This document shows positions 27 to 7,228 of a stretch of DNA of 64,000 bases, in pieces. Position 1 is the first letter of the stretch. Every line of letters starts with the position of its first letter. The DNA is from Escherichia phage MLF4: the sequence record NC_055780.1. The stretch is one strand, 5' to 3'. Position numbers and translations under genes: made by a program. The notes below the pieces were generated by a model. The model was not told where the DNA came from. It saw only the letters and a program-made list of their open reading frames with translations, and made no database searches.

Positions 27-1490
27 ATGATTCTTAAAATTCTGAATGAAATAGCATCTATTGGTTCAACTAAGCAAAAGCAAGCAATTCTTGAAAAGAA
101 TAAAGATAATGAATTGCTCAAACGAGTATATCGTCTGACTTATTCTCGTGGGTTACAGTATTATATCAAGAAATGGCCTAAACCTGGTATTGCTACCCAG
201 AGTTTTGGAATGTTGACTCTTACCGATATGCTTGACTTCATTGAATTCACATTAGCTACTCGGAAATTGACTGGAAATGCGGCAATTGAGGAATTAACTG
301 GATATATTACTGACGGTAAAAAAGATGATGTTGAAGTTTTGCGTCGGGTGATGATGCGAGACCTTGAATGCGGTGCATCAGTATCTATTGCAAACAAAGT
401 TTGGCCAGGTTTAATTCCTGAACAACCTCAAATGCTGGCAAGTTCTTATGATGAAAAAGGCATTAATAAGAATATCAAATTTCCAGCCTTTGCCCAATTA
501 AAAGCTGATGGAGCTCGGTGCTTTGCTGAAGTCAGAGGTGATGAATTAGATGATGTTCGTCTTTTATCACGAGCTGGTAATGAATATCTAGGATTAGATC
601 TTCTCAAGGAAGAGTTAATCAAAATGACTGCAGAAGCTCGCCAGATTCATCCAGAAGGTGTGTTAATTGATGGCGAATTGGTATACCATGAGCAAGTTGA
701 AAAGGAGCCAGAAGGCCTAGATTTTCTTTTTGATGCTTATCCTGAAATTAGTAAAGCTAAAGAATTCGCCGAAGTAGCTGAATCACGTACTACTTCTAAT
801 GGAATCGCTAATAAATCTTTAAAGGGAACTATTTCAGAAAAAGAAGCTCAATGCATGAAGTTTCAGGTCTGGGATTATGTTCCGTTGGTAGAAATATACG
901 GTCTTCCGGCGTTTCGTTTAAAATATGATGTACGTTTTTCTAAACTAGAACAAATGACATCAGGCTATGATAAAGTAATTTTAATTGAAAACCAGATAGT
1001 AAATAACCTAGATGAAGCTAAGGTAATTTATAAAAAGTATATTGACCAAGGTCTTGAAGGTATTATTCTTAAAAATATCGATGGATTATGGGAAAATGCT
1101 CGTTCAAAAAATCTTTATAAATTTAAAGAAGTAATTGATGTTGATTTAAAAATTGTAGGAATTTATCCTCACCGTAAAGACCCTACTAAAGCAGGTGGTT
1201 TCATTCTTGAATCAGAGTGTGGAAAAATTAAAGTAAATGCTGGTTCAGGCTTAAAAGATAAAGCCGGCGTAAAATCACATGAACTTGACCGTACTCGCAT
1301 TATGGAAAACCAAAATTATTATATTGGAAAAATTCTAGAGTGCGAATGCAACGGCTGGGTAAAATTAGATGGACGTACTGATTACGTTAAGCTATTTCTT
1401 CCAATTGCAATTCGTTTACGTGAAGATAAAACTAAAGCTAATACGTTCGAAGATGTATTTGGCGATTTTCATGAGGTAACTGGTTTATGA
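27..1490 (+). CDS. 30: ATP-dependent DNA ligase
   Basis: 487-aa ORF; sequence and length match T4 DNA ligase as recalled (MILKILNEIASIGST...); adenylation K-x-D-G motif in AQLKADGARCF; ATG at 27 with AAGGA upstream. Confidence 0.97.
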   Translation: MILKILNEIASIGSTKQKQAILEKNKDNELLKRVYRLTYSRGLQYYIKKWPKPGIATQSFGMLTLTDMLDFIEFTLATRKLTGNAAIEELTGYITDGKKDDVEVLRRVMMRDLECGASVSIANKVWPGLIPEQPQMLASSYDEKGINKNIKFPAFAQLKADGARCFAEVRGDELDDVRLLSRAGNEYLGLDLLKEELIKMTAEARQIHPEGVLIDGELVYHEQVEKEPEGLDFLFDAYPEISKAKEFAEVAESRTTSNGIANKSLKGTISEKEAQCMKFQVWDYVPLVEIYGLPAFRLKYDVRFSKLEQMTSGYDKVILIENQIVNNLDEAKVIYKKYIDQGLEGIILKNIDGLWENARSKNLYKFKEVIDVDLKIVGIYPHRKDPTKAGGFILESECGKIKVNAGSGLKDKAGVKSHELDRTRIMENQNYYIGKILECECNGWVKLDGRTDYVKLFLPIAIRLREDKTKANTFEDVFGDFHEVTGL

Positions 1491-1672
1491 AAGCTTACTT
1501 AGAAACAATTGTCGTGGCTCAAAAAGAAGGTGGAGATGTTTCCACTGCGGTATCGCAGGTTATTCTTGAATTCCCAGATAAACTAGCATATGATGAATTC
1601 ACGGAAAGATTTGATCCATATGAAAAAGGTCCAAAGTTTGAAGTATATCGTACTCTTTTAGCTCTCTATTAA
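1487..1672 (+). CDS. hypothetical small protein (61 aa)
   Basis: ORF start overlaps ligase stop (ATGA); followed by hairpin terminator; no recognisable domain. Confidence 0.5.
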   Translation: MKAYLETIVVAQKEGGDVSTAVSQVILEFPDKLAYDEFTERFDPYEKGPKFEVYRTLLALY

Positions 1673-1674
1673 TT

Positions 1675-1697
1675 AAAGGCCTTCGGGCCTTTAATTT
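1675..1697 (+). terminator. intrinsic terminator-like hairpin (AAAGGCC-TTCG-GGCCTTT) then A/T-rich run
   Basis: inverted repeat with UUCG tetraloop immediately after stop at 1672. Confidence 0.6.
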
Positions 1698-1705
1698 TAT
1701 AAATA
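1698..1705 (+). promoter_or_regulatory. T4 late promoter core TATAAATA (for alt)
   Basis: exact TATAAATA 24 nt upstream of ATG at 1729. Confidence 0.7.
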
Positions 1706-1728
1706 GAATAAACACTAGAGAGGATAAC

Positions 1729-3822
1729 ATGGAACTTATTACAGAATTATTTGACGAAGATACTACTCTTCCGATTACAAACTTAAATCCAAAGAAGAAA
1801 ATACCACAAATTTTTTCAGTTCATGTTGATGATGCAATTGAACAACCAGGCTTTCGTTTATGTACCTATACATCTGGAGGTGATACTAATCGCGATTTAA
1901 AGATGGGCGATAAAATGATGCATATTGTTCCTTTTACATTAACTGCTAAAGGCTCAATTGCTAAATTAAAAGGTCTTGGTCCAAGCCCAATTAATTATAT
2001 CAATTCAGTTTTTACTGTTGCAATGCAAACGATGCGTCAATATAAAATTGATGCCTGCATGCTTCGTATTCTTAAGTCTAAAACTGCTGGCCAAGCTCGA
2101 CAAATTCAAGTTATTGCTGATAGACTTATCCGTAGTCGTTCAGGTGGCAGATACGTCCTTCTTAAGGAACTCTGGGATTACGATAAAAAGTATGCATATA
2201 TTCTTATACATCGCAAAAATGTATCATTAGAAGACATTCCAGGAGTTCCAGAAATTAGCACTGAACTCTTTACTAAAGTTGAATCGAAGGTCGGTGATGT
2301 TTATATCAATAAAGATACTGGAGCTCAAGTAACTAAAAATGAGGCAATTGCAGCATCTATTGCGCAAGAAAATGATAAACGTTCTGACCAAGCTGTAATC
2401 GTTAAAGTTAAAATTTCCCGTAGAGCAATTGCGCAAAGTCAATCGTTAGAGTCTTCTAGATTTGAAAGTGAATTATTCCAGAAGTATGAATCTACTGCAG
2501 CTAATTTCAATAAACCTGCTACCGCTCCTTTAATTCCCGAAGCAGAAGAAATGAAGCTTGGAATTAATTCATTAGCTTCTAAAACAAAGGCAGCAAAAAT
2601 TATTGCCGAAGGAACGGCAGATGAACTTCACTATGATTATAAATTCTTTCCAATGAGTCAAGTCGGTGAAGTTTCAGAAAAAATTAAAGAAGTAATTTTT
2701 AATGCAATTAAAAATGAACCAACTACTTCAATAAAATGTTTAGAGAAATACGCAGCAGCTGTAAATCAATTCTTTGAAGATTATAAAGATAAATGGCTTG
2801 CTAATCATAATAAAAATCGTAAAGGACAATCAGATGAAGTCTGGGAAGAAATAACTAAAAATTCCTGGAACGCAACAAAAACTAAATTCCTCAAACGAAT
2901 GATTTACAGTTTTTCTGGAATTGGTGCTGGTCCAATGATTGATATTACTATTGCACGCGATGGTTCTAAATATACTCCATCACAAAAGCGTGGCATTAGA
3001 GAATATTGCGGTTCAGGATATACTGACATCAATAATCTTCTTTTAGGTCGTTACAATCCAGAACGATACGATGTAATGAGTGAAAAAGAAATTGAATCTG
3101 CTATAAATAACTTAGATTCAGCTTTTGAAAATGGTGACCGTATACCAGAAGGCATTACAGTTTATCGTGCTCAAAGTATGACTGCTCCTATATATGAAGC
3201 GTTAGTTAAAAATAAAGTGTTCTACTTCAGAAATTTTGTATCTACTTCTTTAACTCCTATCATTTTTGGACGTTTTGGAATCACACATGCTGGTATTGGT
3301 CTTTTAGAACCAGAAGCTCGTAATGAATTGACAGTTGATAAAAATGAAGAAGGAATAACTATTAATCCAAACGAAATAAGAGCGTATAAAGAAAATCCTG
3401 AATACGTTAAAGTTCAAATAGGATGGGCAATTGATGGAGCTCATAAAGTTAATGTTGTATATCCAGGAAGTCTCGGAATAGCAACAGAAGCTGAAGTTAT
3501 TCTACCGCGCGGATTGATGGTCAAAGTTAATAAAATAACTGATGCTTCTAATAATGACGGAACAACATCTAATAATACAAAACTCATTCAAGCTGAAGTT
3601 ATGACCACAGAAGAGCTCACCGAATCGGTAATCTATGACGGAGACCATTTAATGGAAACCGGTGAAGTAGTTGCAATGACAGGTGATATTGAAATAGAAG
3701 ACAGAGTTGACTTTGCATCATTTGTTTCATCAAATATTAAACAGAAAGTAGAATCATCTCTTGGAATTATTGCGTCTTGCATAGATATTACAAACATGCC
3801 TTACAAGTTCGTTCAAGGATAA
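1729..3822 (+). CDS. alt: Alt ADP-ribosyltransferase (virion-packaged)
   Basis: 697 aa; N-terminus MELITELFDEDTTLPITNL and C-terminus ...NMPYKFVQG match recalled T4 Alt; ART-like elements YRAQ, FVSTSL, EAEVILPRG; late promoter upstream. Confidence 0.9.
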   Translation: MELITELFDEDTTLPITNLNPKKKIPQIFSVHVDDAIEQPGFRLCTYTSGGDTNRDLKMGDKMMHIVPFTLTAKGSIAKLKGLGPSPINYINSVFTVAMQTMRQYKIDACMLRILKSKTAGQARQIQVIADRLIRSRSGGRYVLLKELWDYDKKYAYILIHRKNVSLEDIPGVPEISTELFTKVESKVGDVYINKDTGAQVTKNEAIAASIAQENDKRSDQAVIVKVKISRRAIAQSQSLESSRFESELFQKYESTAANFNKPATAPLIPEAEEMKLGINSLASKTKAAKIIAEGTADELHYDYKFFPMSQVGEVSEKIKEVIFNAIKNEPTTSIKCLEKYAAAVNQFFEDYKDKWLANHNKNRKGQSDEVWEEITKNSWNATKTKFLKRMIYSFSGIGAGPMIDITIARDGSKYTPSQKRGIREYCGSGYTDINNLLLGRYNPERYDVMSEKEIESAINNLDSAFENGDRIPEGITVYRAQSMTAPIYEALVKNKVFYFRNFVSTSLTPIIFGRFGITHAGIGLLEPEARNELTVDKNEEGITINPNEIRAYKENPEYVKVQIGWAIDGAHKVNVVYPGSLGIATEAEVILPRGLMVKVNKITDASNNDGTTSNNTKLIQAEVMTTEELTESVIYDGDHLMETGEVVAMTGDIEIEDRVDFASFVSSNIKQKVESSLGIIASCIDITNMPYKFVQG

Positions 3823-3825
3823 ATC

Positions 3826-5883
3826 ATGGAACTTATTACAGAATTATTTGACGGCGCTTCGGCGCCGGTTGTTAACTTAAATCCTAAGCATAAAATACCT
3901 CAAATTTTTGCTATTCAAGCAGGTGAAGAAAGCGTGCTTCCTGGATTTAGATTTTGTACATACACCTCTGGCGGTGATACGAATAAAAACGTTAAGCCAG
4001 GCGACAAAATGATGCATATCGTAATGATAGGTGTTAATGAGAAACTATCATTAGTTAAGCTTAAAAACTTGGGTGGAAATCCAATTGGCGTCATTAATGC
4101 TGTTTTTGATACTGCTCTTCAAACAATGAAGCAGTATAAAATTGATGCATGCCTATTCCGCGTACTAAAAAGTAAAACAAATGGCGCAGCTCGTCAAATG
4201 CAAGTTATTGCTGACCGTTTAGTACGTACTAAAGGAGCAGGTCGATATGTTCTTTTAAAGGAAATCTGGGATTATGATAAAAAGTACGCATATATTATGG
4301 TTTACCGTAAAAATGCCAATTTAGAAGACATTCCAGGTGTACCTCCTATTTCAACCGAGTTATTCACAAAAGTTGAATCAAAGGTTGGTGATGTTTATGT
4401 AGACGTTAAAACAGGTAATGCTGTTCCTAAAGCTGTTGCTGTTGCTGCTTCTATTGCTTTAGAAAATGATAAGCGCACGGATCAAGCTGTTATTCAGAAA
4501 ACTAAAATTAGTCGTCGATTAGCAGCACAAGCTCAATATTCTACTGTTGATGCTTCACTTCAGGGTGATAGCTTCGCTGCTAAGAAATATCAAGAGTTTG
4601 AATCTAAAGTTCCGGTATATAAAGCAGAAGGACCAATGAACTCTGGCGTTATTCAGATTGGTTCAAACTTTAGCAAAGGAGCTATCGGTGGTATGAGAAG
4701 TGCTTCTCGTTTTAAATCTAGTGATTATGAACTCGAAAGCTTCCGAAATCATATTGCATTGGCCCATGCACGTTTACGCGATCCATCTATCAAGCTGCAG
4801 AGCGATATAACATATCAAGGTTCTCAAGAATATTTAAAGAATAAAGAATTCTTTGATTATAAAACTGATAAAATTTTAAGCGATCTTGCTGACATTAATA
4901 TTTCTAATAGCTTTGATGTTATTAAGAAAATTGTCAATGATTTAGTTAAAGGTTCTAAAGCTACACCAGATGAAAAGACAGCTATTATTCAATTTGTCAT
5001 GAATGGAATTTATAAATTAATTGATGAATCTGCCGCTCAGGCATATGAATATGCAAGTACTGAAGTAACTCCAAAAGGATTAACTCAGGCTGAATCTGAT
5101 GTAATTGAAGATTATTGTGCAGATTCATATGTTGAAATGAACTCATTCCTTTTAGGTAAACCTGATTCTACCCGTGAAGAATATATGGAACGAGCTATTA
5201 AACATATTGAGACGCTGGATTCTGCATTTTCTAAAGGTTCAGTTCTTCCTCCAGGAACGACTCTTTATCGTGGGCAAGAAGTTACCTTTAAAACTTTGCG
5301 TCATAACATTGAAAATAAAATGTTCTATTTCAAGAACTTTGTATCTACTTCACTCAAGCCAAATATCTTCGGTGAATATGGTAAAAATTATATGGCCTTA
5401 GATGATTCCGGAGCAGTATTTTCTGGTGAAGGAGAAGGTTCAGTTGATGCTGAAGATTTAATGCATATGGGTAGTCATTCTACATATGCGAATGAAGACG
5501 CTGAAACTAGCGTGGGTATGGTAATTAAAGGAGCTGAACGAGTTAAAGTTATCGTTCCAGGTCATTTGTCAGGATTTCCATCAGAAGCTGAAGTTATTCT
5601 ACCACGTGGAATTTTACTGAAGATTAATAAAGTAAGTACTTACTTTATGAAAGAAACTGCTTATAACAAGTATCTAATCGAAGGTACAATCGTTCCTCCT
5701 TCTGAACAATTAGAAGAATCAGTATATGATGGCGACCATCTAATGGAAACTGGTGAAGTTCGTCCAATGGCTGGATTTAATCAATTCCTTGTAGAAGAAT
5801 CAAAAGAAGAGGAAAACGAAGTTTCTCAAATCTTAGCTTCTTTGGTTAACATTAACGGAATGTCTAAAAAGTTCAAAATGTAG
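3826..5883 (+). CDS. Alt-like ADP-ribosyltransferase paralog
   Basis: 685 aa; same N-terminal block (MELITELFD...CTYTSGGDTN...KQYKIDAC...WDYDKKYAYI) and catalytic-region motifs (YRGQ, FYFKNFVSTSL, EAEVILPRG, YDGDHLMETGEV) as the upstream alt but divergent central and C-terminal segments. Confidence 0.8.
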   Translation: MELITELFDGASAPVVNLNPKHKIPQIFAIQAGEESVLPGFRFCTYTSGGDTNKNVKPGDKMMHIVMIGVNEKLSLVKLKNLGGNPIGVINAVFDTALQTMKQYKIDACLFRVLKSKTNGAARQMQVIADRLVRTKGAGRYVLLKEIWDYDKKYAYIMVYRKNANLEDIPGVPPISTELFTKVESKVGDVYVDVKTGNAVPKAVAVAASIALENDKRTDQAVIQKTKISRRLAAQAQYSTVDASLQGDSFAAKKYQEFESKVPVYKAEGPMNSGVIQIGSNFSKGAIGGMRSASRFKSSDYELESFRNHIALAHARLRDPSIKLQSDITYQGSQEYLKNKEFFDYKTDKILSDLADINISNSFDVIKKIVNDLVKGSKATPDEKTAIIQFVMNGIYKLIDESAAQAYEYASTEVTPKGLTQAESDVIEDYCADSYVEMNSFLLGKPDSTREEYMERAIKHIETLDSAFSKGSVLPPGTTLYRGQEVTFKTLRHNIENKMFYFKNFVSTSLKPNIFGEYGKNYMALDDSGAVFSGEGEGSVDAEDLMHMGSHSTYANEDAETSVGMVIKGAERVKVIVPGHLSGFPSEAEVILPRGILLKINKVSTYFMKETAYNKYLIEGTIVPPSEQLEESVYDGDHLMETGEVRPMAGFNQFLVEESKEEENEVSQILASLVNINGMSKKFKM

Positions 5884-5912
5884 TTTACAAGTCCCTCGTG
5901 TTGTGTTATAGT
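5883..5912 (+). promoter_or_regulatory. T4 early-type promoter (GTTTAC-N18-TATAGT)
   Basis: GTTTAC overlaps the TAG stop of the Alt paralog; -10-like TATAGT 18 nt downstream; precedes ORF at 5944. Confidence 0.5.
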
Positions 5913-5943
5913 AGTCTTACTGACATAACATGAGGAACACAAA

Positions 5944-6234
5944 ATGAAATCTTCTTTGCGCTTTTTAGGTCAAGAACTTGTAGTTGAAGGCGTTATTCCT
6001 GCTGATAATGCTTTTAATGAAGCAGTTTACGATGAATTTATTAAAATTTTCGGAACCGATAAAAAGTTTGGAATTTTTCCTTCTGAAAATTTTTCAAAGC
6101 CAGAACAGACTGAAAGTATTTTTCAGGGTGTAGTAACAGGTAAATTTGAGTCAGAAGCTCCGGTAAAAATTGAGGTTTATATTGAAGAAACCTCTGTTGC
6201 TTCAGTTGCTGCTTTTATTTCATTCCGTAAATAA
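5944..6234 (+). CDS. hypothetical protein (96 aa)
   Basis: ORF with GAGGAA SD; occupies the alt.-N position between alt and gene 54; no recognisable domain. Confidence 0.5.
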   Translation: MKSSLRFLGQELVVEGVIPADNAFNEAVYDEFIKIFGTDKKFGIFPSENFSKPEQTESIFQGVVTGKFESEAPVKIEVYIEETSVASVAAFISFRK

Positions 6235-6238
6235 AAAC

Positions 6239-6260
6239 ATGGGGACCTTTCGGTCCCCAT
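6239..6260. terminator. bidirectional hairpin terminator (ATGGGGACC-TTTC-GGTCCCCAT)
   Basis: 9-bp perfect stem between convergent ORF 5944..6234 and gene 54. Confidence 0.7.
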
Positions 6261-6262
6261 TG

Positions 6263-7228
6263 TTATATTGCTCCTAATATTTTACTTTGCGAGTTGACAA
6301 TTCCTGTCATAGTATTAATATTTGAAATGCTTCCTGCAGTTCCCCCTAATCTACTAAGTCGTGAAAGCGAATTAGATAGTCCAGTAACACCTCCACTATT
6401 TCCGAGAACGCTTTGAATACCATTTATAGTAGCAGATTCAAGCCATTCAAGGGCAGCTTGTCTATCAACTGCTCCAGCCTGCATGACTCTATAAGCGAAA
6501 GTAACATCAAATGTAGTTATTTGGTTATCTCCATCATATGATAACTCAGGAGCACTCACAGATATTGGAATACAGCCAGTGAACATCACCGCAGTATGTG
6601 GTAATCCATTGCGAGAATGAAGATTGACCTGAATATCTGCCTCGACATCTTGCGGTAAAGCACGCAATCCAGTTACTGGGTCTTGAACGGCGTTAACCCA
6701 GTCTTGCATTGCACGATAGTTACAAGCTTCTGAATCCATTCTGAATGAAATAACCAAAGGGTCTAATTCTCTTCCAGTTATACGAATATTAGGAGAATTA
6801 TAGTTCCAGTCAGTTTCATAGGATAATCTATTCTCTGGCATTTTTACAGAATATATCATCAATCCAGATGAGTTATATGCCATGTTAAAGAAGTCAATTA
6901 AATATGTACCAACTGTAAATGAGCCTAATAAACTCTGAACAGTACGCTGACTCATAGCTCCAATAAGATATTTACTGACTCCCGATTTTCTTATTAGTTT
7001 TTGTGTGCCAGCGGTAATTAGCGTGGTAATTCCCTGATTAATATCGCCTTGAGACAATCCTAACCAGTCTGAATTTAGACCCAAGTTATTATAAGAAAAG
7101 TTGCTAATTGAACTTATCAACGAAGAGCTTTTAGTTGATGGAGTTGTCGCAAAAACGCAGCTAAACATATTATTACGTTGGAAATCTGCGTTTATTGCTT
7201 GATTATTAAATTCCTCTAAAGAATACAT
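6263..7228 (-). CDS. 54: baseplate tail-tube initiator gp54
   Basis: 321 aa; position and length match T4 gp54; adjacent to gp48. Confidence 0.85.
   Translation of the reverse strand: MYSLEEFNNQAINADFQRNNMFSCVFATTPSTKSSSLISSISNFSYNNLGLNSDWLGLSQGDINQGITTLITAGTQKLIRKSGVSKYLIGAMSQRTVQSLLGSFTVGTYLIDFFNMAYNSSGLMIYSVKMPENRLSYETDWNYNSPNIRITGRELDPLVISFRMDSEACNYRAMQDWVNAVQDPVTGLRALPQDVEADIQVNLHSRNGLPHTAVMFTGCIPISVSAPELSYDGDNQITTFDVTFAYRVMQAGAVDRQAALEWLESATINGIQSVLGNSGGVTGLSNSLSRLSRLGGTAGSISNINTMTGIVNSQSKILGAI

Follow-up and report, generated by a model that had tools for sequence, protein, structure and literature searches.

The alt locus of Escherichia phage MLF4 (NC_055780.1) was analysed in a stretch of 64,000 nucleotides (nt) of this genome, which we call the window (positions are counted from its first letter, and the features are collected in Table 1). 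At this locus, two open reading frames (ORF1 and ORF2) stand head to tail on the + strand, at exactly the coordinates where an initial annotation of the sequence had placed two adjacent frames of 697 and 685 residues. They are flanked on the 5' side by DNA ligase (gene 30) and alt.1 and on the 3' side by alt.-3 and the baseplate genes 54, 48 and 29, and both therefore lie in the position of the Alt family (gene 30/alt.1 to alt.-3/gene 54). The source is a Tequatrovirus: positions 1400-6300 of the window share 98.6% identity with Escherichia phage vB_EcoM-BECP11, and matches to this region occur in 542 phage records. The gene pair is not a discovery in itself, being annotated in hundreds of genomes (many records label it alt_1/alt_2, or write "Alt-like" twice), and the duplication is mentioned in the T4 GenBank record and by Nolan et al. 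2006, who described paralogous alt duplications in T4, RB49 and 44RR. We place ORF2 within the Alt family and do not regard it as a novel type of system. What we describe here is that this second gene is kept intact and under selection in most Tequatrovirus records, T4 being the exception, and that the locus is built from exchangeable parts, a cassette structure for which we found no paper addressing it.

The reference for this family is T4 Alt, an injected arginine ADP-ribosyltransferase of which the head carries about 40 copies, and which has also been described as a prohead core protein. Its targets include Arg265 of one RNA polymerase alpha subunit, Arg84 of MazF and EF-Tu, and it is promiscuous, with at least 27 targets (review PMC8120803). 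These targets cannot be transferred with confidence to ORF1 or ORF2, because the T4 cassette differs from both.

ORF1 and ORF2 are full-length homologues (42% identity by BLASTP, E 4e-162), and the Alt family of PHROG (phrog_802) matches both from end to end, at 2e-272 and 6e-257, respectively. The similarity is unevenly distributed, as the initial annotation had proposed when it described a conserved N-terminal block with a divergent centre and C-terminus: in the pairwise alignment, the N domains are 67% identical, the C-terminal tails 44%, the catalytic domains 35% and the central domains about 10%. The possibility raised there, that the second frame is the ordinary Alt and the first something else, did not hold, both being Alt paralogues with ORF1 in the position of T4 alt. 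A PDB sequence search with ORF2 gave no match, nor did scans with NCBIfam and PADLOC, and an Rfam scan of window 1400-6400 returned nothing.

Table 1. Features of the alt locus of Escherichia phage MLF4, with positions in the window.
Feature	Position	Strand	Remark
Terminator-like G+C-rich hairpin and T run (AAAGGCCTTCGGGCCTTTAATTTT)	1675-1697	+	closes the gene 30/alt.1 unit; direct reading of the sequence
T4-type late promoter TATAAATA	1698-1705	+	24 nt ahead of the ORF1 ATG; no other copy is positioned to drive ORF1 and ORF2
ORF1, alt, 697 residues	1729-3822	+	positional orthologue of T4 alt with T2/T6-type ("A") effector cassette
ORF1 N-terminal propeptide MELITE (predicted gp21 site ITE-6)	1729-1746	+	identical to T4 Alt; Glu6 nearly invariant in the family
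ORF1 N-terminal alpha/beta domain, residues 7-238	1747-2442	+	AlphaFold pLDDT 80-94
ORF1 central all-helical domain, residues 239-410	2443-2958	+	hypervariable between alleles
ORF1 ADP-ribosyltransferase domain, residues 411-632	2959-3624	+	ends at predicted gp21 site L630-T631-E632
ORF1 catalytic codons	R480 3166-3168; S-T-S 3241-3249; E-A-E 3487-3495	+	coordinates verified
ORF1 C-terminal propeptide, residues 633-697	3625-3819	+	90-93% identity with the 63 residues that are cut off T4 Alt
Shine-Dalgarno-like AAGGA for ORF2	3814-3818	+	overlaps the last codons of ORF1
ORF2, second alt paralogue, 685 residues, "B" type	3826-5883	+	intact form of T4 alt.-1/alt.-2
ORF2 N-terminal propeptide MELITE	3826-3843	+	from the sequence
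ORF2 N-terminal alpha/beta domain, residues 7-238	3844-4539	+	AlphaFold pLDDT 80-94; putative crossover substrate with the ORF1 N domain
ORF2 central all-helical domain, residues 239-415	4540-5070	+	
First copy of CTAAAAAGT, left deletion end	4165-4173	+	9-nt repeat; junction in the T4 alt.-1/alt.-2 remnant
ORF2 ADP-ribosyltransferase domain, residues 416-631	5071-5718	+	ends L629-E630-E631
ORF2 catalytic codons	R482 5269-5271; S-T-S 5344-5352; E-A-E 5584-5592	+	
ORF2 C-terminal propeptide, residues 632-685, starting SVYDGDHLMETGEV	5719-5880	+	columns 631-645 among the family's best conserved
Second copy of CTAAAAAGT, right deletion end	5864-5872	+	1699 base pairs from the first copy

Both frames carry the Arg / Ser-Thr-Ser / Glu-x-Glu elements of an ADP-ribosyltransferase that the initial annotation had pointed out, and a check of the codons found none of the catalytic residues missing from ORF2: the motifs are YR480AQ, S505-T-S507 and E587-A-E589 in ORF1 and YR482GQ, S507-T-S509 and E587-A-E589 in ORF2. 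The Pfam family PF03496 (ADPrib_exo_Tox) matches ORF1 at 1e-37 and ORF2 at 3e-20, and the Alt-family N domain (PF26846, Tevenvirinae_ADPRT) is present in the precomputed annotation of near-identical homologues of ORF2. The N domain of ORF1 is 100% identical to that of T4 Alt, and that of ORF2 67%. We aligned 68 Alt-family members taken from a library of 1.84 billion proteins; the columns without variation are, in ORF2 numbering, Y430, D465, R482, S507, E587, E589, R594 and G595, and both Glu6 and Glu631 are at least 90% conserved. Across the family, conservation is highest in the N domain, in the catalytic core and in the cleavage region, and variation is greatest in the central domain and in the loop that leads from Ser-Thr-Ser to Glu-x-Glu. 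The residues directly before Glu-x-Glu also vary by type (GIATEAE in ORF1, APSNEME in T4 and GFPSEAE in ORF2). In C3-like enzymes, the stretch just before Glu-x-Glu contacts the substrate. The Glu-x-Glu motif is itself typical of arginine-modifying enzymes (review PMC8120803). The published dead mutant of T4 Alt is E577A, while the motif of the RefSeq T4 Alt is numbered E574/E576, which puts the second Glu one position off.

AlphaFold (AF2) models of the two proteins reach a predicted local distance difference test score (pLDDT) of 85.2 and a predicted template modelling score (pTM) of 0.80 for ORF2, and 84.1 and 0.77, respectively, for ORF1. They have a common plan, with an alpha/beta N domain up to residue ~240, a helical centre, a catalytic domain rich in beta structure (in which the loop following Ser-Thr-Ser is disordered) and a helical tail which lies beyond the cleavage site. 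Structural matches to the modelled catalytic domain are Vis, Certhrax, C3, CDTa and VIP2, and its fold is C3/VIP2-like (Arg-Ser-Glu). Both frames most likely encode C3/VIP2-type ADP-ribosyltransferases, predicted to be arginine-specific. As for their processing, T4 Alt is cut by gp21 at ITE-6 and at LTE-619, the latter cut taking off 63 C-terminal residues (PMC5694885), and predicted gp21 sites are kept at both ends of the two proteins (ITE-6 and LTE-632 in ORF1; ITE-6 and LEE-631 in ORF2), the C-terminal one being followed in each by a conserved S-x-x-YDGDHLMETGE.

The duplication which gave rise to the pair is old, because third codon positions at shared residues of the two N domains agree in only about 55-65% of cases, the first 15 codons excepted. 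In these first ~15 codons (1729-1775 in ORF1 and 3826-3870 in ORF2), identical residues share their third positions in 90% of cases, which points to local gene conversion or to a constraint on the 5' end of the message.

Compared with T4 Alt (P12726), ORF1 is 70% identical overall, and this figure hides sharp regional differences: identity is about 98-100% up to residue ~235, 15-30% in residues 270-400, 60-85% in the catalytic core and more than 93% from residue ~615 onward, with about 50% for the central and catalytic part taken together (centre 32%, catalytic domain 65%). ORF1 is alt by position and carries, between near-identical ends, a different allele of the central and catalytic part, which we call "A"; the borders of the A and T4 ("C") alleles fall at residues ~235 and ~615. 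The A allele is also found in T2 (95% identity in the central/catalytic part) and, as assigned from gene length and position and not from typing of the cassette, in T6, whose gene in this slot has 697 residues. The C allele is carried by 175 records.

Between ORF2 and T4 Alt, identity is 41% over the whole protein and 35% over the catalytic domain; what corresponds directly to ORF2 in T4 is a remnant. The T4 GenBank record gives the order alt, alt.-1, alt.-2, alt.-3 and regards alt.-1/alt.-2 as an old duplication of the start of alt, which bears out the statement in the initial annotation that T4 has only these small frames where ORF2 sits. The translated alt.-1 region of T4 is almost letter for letter the N terminus of ORF2, T4 DNA aligns with the first 348 nt of ORF2 and then with its last 11 nt, and the PHROG families of alt.-1 and alt.-2 score 138 and 131 bits against ORF2 vs 78 and 70 bits against ORF1. 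T4 has lost 1699 base pairs by deletion between two 9-nt repeats, since the junction falls in CTAAAAAGT, which is present twice in the window, and it has in addition one 1-nt frameshift. Phage N2 has the same deletion junction without the frameshift.

The distribution of the second gene was surveyed in the GenBank phage collection, across 500 Tequatrovirus records. An ORF2-type protein at 90% identity or above is found in about 301 of them, and in about 99 more the identity is diluted by joined pieces. A contiguous T4-like remnant is present in 91 of the 500, the rest keeping the 5' part of ORF2 separate from its 3' flank. Both T2 and T6 have the two genes, the second of 685 residues, annotated as "hypothetical protein" in T2 and as "apparent insertion in alt.-2; also similar to alt" in T6. 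A second alt copy is the rule (about 400 of the 500 records) and T4 is the exception. The initial annotation had suggested that this phage may retain an intact second effector; ORF2 is indeed an intact enzyme gene under selection, and the suggestion undersold a situation that holds for most relatives. A scan of IMG/VR with the N domain yielded 7 loci, too few for a survey.

The ratio of nonsynonymous to synonymous substitution rates (dN/dS), computed pairwise for 11 ORF2-type genes with synonymous divergence (dS) up to 0.4, is 0.018 in the N domain, 0.058 in the centre, 0.032 in the catalytic domain and 0.076 in the tail, values comparable to those of alt proper, or lower. Purifying selection on ORF2 is strong, and the gene is not a decaying copy. 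The idea that it is a duplicate heading for loss, as happened in T4, and intact here by chance, would draw on its loss in T4 and 90 other records and on hybrid genes (described below) that show how easily material is lost at this locus, and is effectively refuted by selection and frequency: dN/dS stays at 0.02-0.08 over the 11 orthologues, the gene is intact in about 400 records, and the duplication is old, with copies of the B lineage in another genus.

The two positions of the locus can be treated as slots, of which the first holds an A or C gene and the second a B gene or its remnant. Slot 1 is A and slot 2 is B in this window, UFV-AREG1, T2 and slur07; vB_EcoM_C2-3 has C and B, T4 has C and the remnant, and N2 has A and the remnant. 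The slots assort independently, since all four combinations occur (in loci that were fetched and compared). Additionally, some phages have a single hybrid gene, of ORF1 type in its 5' part and of ORF2 type in the remainder, with one clean switch each; five variants are known, switching at residues ~44-55, ~103-111, ~148-159, ~176-193 and ~219-225. One of them comes from an isolate, Escherichia phage ECML-134 (NC_025449, a RefSeq record; locus L022, 3702-5762), where the gene is of ORF1 type up to ~148 and of ORF2 type from ~159 and is directly flanked by alt.1 and alt.-3. Four metagenomic variants give the remaining crossover points, and two of the hybrids (L013 and L014, on contigs of 65 kb and 110 kb) also have alt.1 and alt.-3 as their direct flanks. 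Judged by their sequences, such hybrids are the product expected of unequal crossing-over between the tandem N domains. The possibility that they are assembly chimeras was considered and rejected, given the RefSeq isolate, the two long contigs with both flanks, and the N domains being 56-79% identical at the nucleotide level (30-codon windows). Hybrids could not be counted by megablast across the crossover, where the alignment runs through the paralogous N domain at 85-88%.

Exchange also reaches beyond the genus. In Escherichia phage WG01 (a Dhakavirus; locus L020, 244-6356), three tandem Alt paralogues of 631, 693 and 707 residues lie between alt.1 and alt.-3. The second of them has a catalytic domain 95% identical to that of ORF1 and an N domain 47% identical, and the third belongs to the ORF2 (B) lineage. 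An A-type catalytic module has moved between genera, since dS between the second copy and ORF1 is 0.44 in the catalytic domain vs 1.0 to saturated in the N domain, centre, tail and neighbouring genes. Yet another pair of alleles is found in a more distant relative. N domains are 63-67% identical within a genome vs 42-47% between genera, which fits an N domain that would serve as a delivery part matched to its own phage head. Sharp breaks of identity at module borders and natural recombinants are both found, as expected of polymorphic effectors, and the alt locus behaves as an array of swappable effector cassettes. An N domain with cargo other than an ADP-ribosyltransferase was not found among the 114 N-domain representatives from the 1.84 billion proteins, essentially all fusions being with ADP-ribosyltransferases; one representative (P0217) is without a recognisable catalytic domain and looks like a shortened relative of another (P0230) which has one.

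In the Acinetobacter phages ZZ1 and Henu6 (BFVD matches to the ORF2 model), Alt is "split" into two proteins of roughly 280-470 residues which between them cover its architecture, another sign of a family cut and rejoined at domain borders.

The hybrids also bear on where the ORF2 product would act. It might be made late and left unpackaged, acting in the producing cell (like ModA/ModB, although late) or serving mainly as a structural component of the core, a role for which the description of T4 Alt as a core protein as well as an enzyme could be invoked. ORF2, however, keeps an identical MELITE, the 67% N domain, the C-terminal cleavage motif and the conserved tail, its catalytic residues are invariant, and natural hybrids with an ORF1 N domain and an ORF2 effector survive as the only alt gene, because of which the N domains of ORF1 and ORF2 appear interchangeable. 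We regard an unpackaged or structural product as very improbable.

The signals around the pair suggest how it is expressed. The hairpin ahead of the late promoter was not flagged by our consensus terminator scan, and a conserved terminator upstream of alt has been reported (Nolan et al. 2006). The late-promoter consensus TATAAATA has 25 matches in the window vs 10.1 expected, and the copy closest to ORF2 on its 5' side lies at 3102-3109 on the + strand, within codons 458-461 of ORF1. As a promoter this copy was rejected, being inside ORF1 and not kept in T4 alt, and it is probably a chance occurrence in AT-rich DNA. The initial annotation had called both frames late-promoter-driven; this stands for ORF1, with its canonical promoter, and not for ORF2, which has no late promoter of its own. 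ORF2 would most likely be co-transcribed from the promoter of ORF1, because there is a single late promoter, the gap from the ORF1 stop to the ORF2 ATG is 3 nt, AAGGA precedes this ATG, and the consensus scan found no terminator-like site between the two frames.

The neighbouring genes have signals of their own. The alt.1 orthologue (61 residues, 1487-1672, + strand; Pfam PF24647 "Phage blade protein" at 7e-28) has a 4-nt overlap with the ligase stop, and behind it comes the hairpin that stands just ahead of the late promoter. The alt.-3 orthologue (96 residues, 5944-6234, + strand; Pfam DUF5498) has its own sigma-70/early-type promoter-like site at 5884-5912 (TTTACA-17-TATAGT), and the hairpin at 6239-6260 which follows it is a bidirectional terminator common to alt.-3 and gene 54. 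In T4, mutations that extend the C-terminus of Alt.-3 allow escape from the CmdTAC defence system (Nature 2024, PMC11618068).

The gene structure, homology, conserved residues, purifying selection, frequency and recombination products of the locus are directly supported by the comparisons given above. From them we infer co-transcription, packaging, processing, injection, enzymatic activity and target divergence in a two-gene alt locus, to which we give a probability of roughly three in four: both products would be late-made, packaged, trimmed and injected enzymes, that of ORF2 with different or partly overlapping targets. In this mechanism, one late promoter would most likely give one transcript and, from it, two paralogous enzymes of the same build, each with a 6-residue N-terminal propeptide, an alpha/beta N domain, a helical centre, an ADP-ribosyltransferase domain and a C-terminal propeptide of ~55-65 residues. 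If they behave like T4 Alt, the two proteins would enter the prohead core, be shortened by the gp21 protease at either end and pass into the cell together with the DNA, where they would modify host proteins by ADP-ribosylation during the first minutes after infection. ORF2, as an old and separately maintained paralogue, would most likely modify a different or partly overlapping set of host proteins, because there is almost no resemblance to ORF1 in its central domain and in the loops that face the substrate. The conserved N domain and tail could act as recombination handles, between which effector parts would be swapped, fused, deleted or multiplied over time.

ORF2 could also be a redundant spare that acts on the targets of Alt and is kept for a higher dose of injected enzyme. 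The shared architecture, catalytic residues and processing motifs are what a back-up would have, T4 Alt is already broad in its targets, and phages with one copy are viable. We consider redundancy unlikely: the centres are about 10% and the catalytic domains 35% identical, the stretch from Ser-Thr-Ser to Glu-x-Glu and the residues before Glu-x-Glu are type-specific, each type is nearly constant under purifying selection (which argues that the differences matter), and the B lineage is a separate copy in a Dhakavirus too.

Several points weigh against a two-gene locus of injected enzymes with diverged targets. The late transcription of ORF2 is deduced from simple scans that show neither a promoter of its own nor an intervening terminator, and target divergence is argued from the sequence of the centre and the loops; given the promiscuity of T4 Alt, the enzymes could have a large share of their targets in common. 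Within the ORF2 type, we saw no sign of diversifying selection, which leaves an ongoing arms race unsupported. T4, the 90 other records and the phages with a single hybrid manage without one copy, and therefore neither copy is required on laboratory hosts. Finally, we found no literature on the second Alt, whether on its function, on virion proteomes listing the ORF2 product or on defence-escape mutations in ORF2.

These results matter mainly because our knowledge of injected phage ADP-ribosyltransferases comes almost wholly from T4, and T4 is atypical here, being without the second enzyme of most relatives (T2 and T6 included) and having an Alt cassette which differs from theirs. If the enzyme types differ in their targets, T4 shows only part of the injected repertoire. 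Catalytic cassettes are exchanged between phages, and a natural series of phages differing at this locus (A and B, C and B, A alone, C alone, and B alone as a hybrid) makes target divergence directly testable. A wider reading, which we offer as speculative and rather doubtful, is that ORF2-type enzymes are injected specifically to counter host defences or take over the host, acting on targets untouched by T4 Alt, and that the alt locus is an array of one to three slots in which a phage-specific head-delivery module would carry catalytic cassettes traded between genera. If ORF2 were such an effector, its lack in T4 would contribute to the differences between T4 and T2/T6 in wild hosts and in the defence systems overcome.

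Among known systems, T4 Alt shares with ORF1 the place between alt.1 and alt.-3, the catalytic motifs and the two gp21 sites, and with ORF2 the architecture and motifs; it differs in that ORF1 has another central/catalytic allele and ORF2 fills the slot deleted in T4, being whole here where alt.-1/alt.-2 is deleted and frameshifted. T4 ModA and ModB are members of the same Arg-Ser-Glu clade of phage ADP-ribosyltransferases acting on host transcription and translation proteins, but they are, according to the literature, small, synthesised after infection and unpackaged, without the N domain, centre and propeptides. The Vis, Certhrax, C3 and CDTa/iota/VIP2 toxins show 14-26% sequence identity; they have no counterpart of the Alt N and central domains, and they use toxin secretion or a binary-toxin pore, in contrast to Alt, which is delivered by the phage head. 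In IPI-IPIII of the T-even phages, delivery of the variable cargo depends on a conserved capsid-targeting propeptide, a signal of 10-20 residues, whereas Alt has a 230-residue folded domain and two propeptides, and the Alt cargo is always an ADP-ribosyltransferase and comes with no immunity gene. By analogy, and not by membership, IPI-IPIII (and, more loosely, polymorphic toxins) resemble the alt locus in combining a conserved delivery part with exchangeable effectors, at a locus which varies between related phages.

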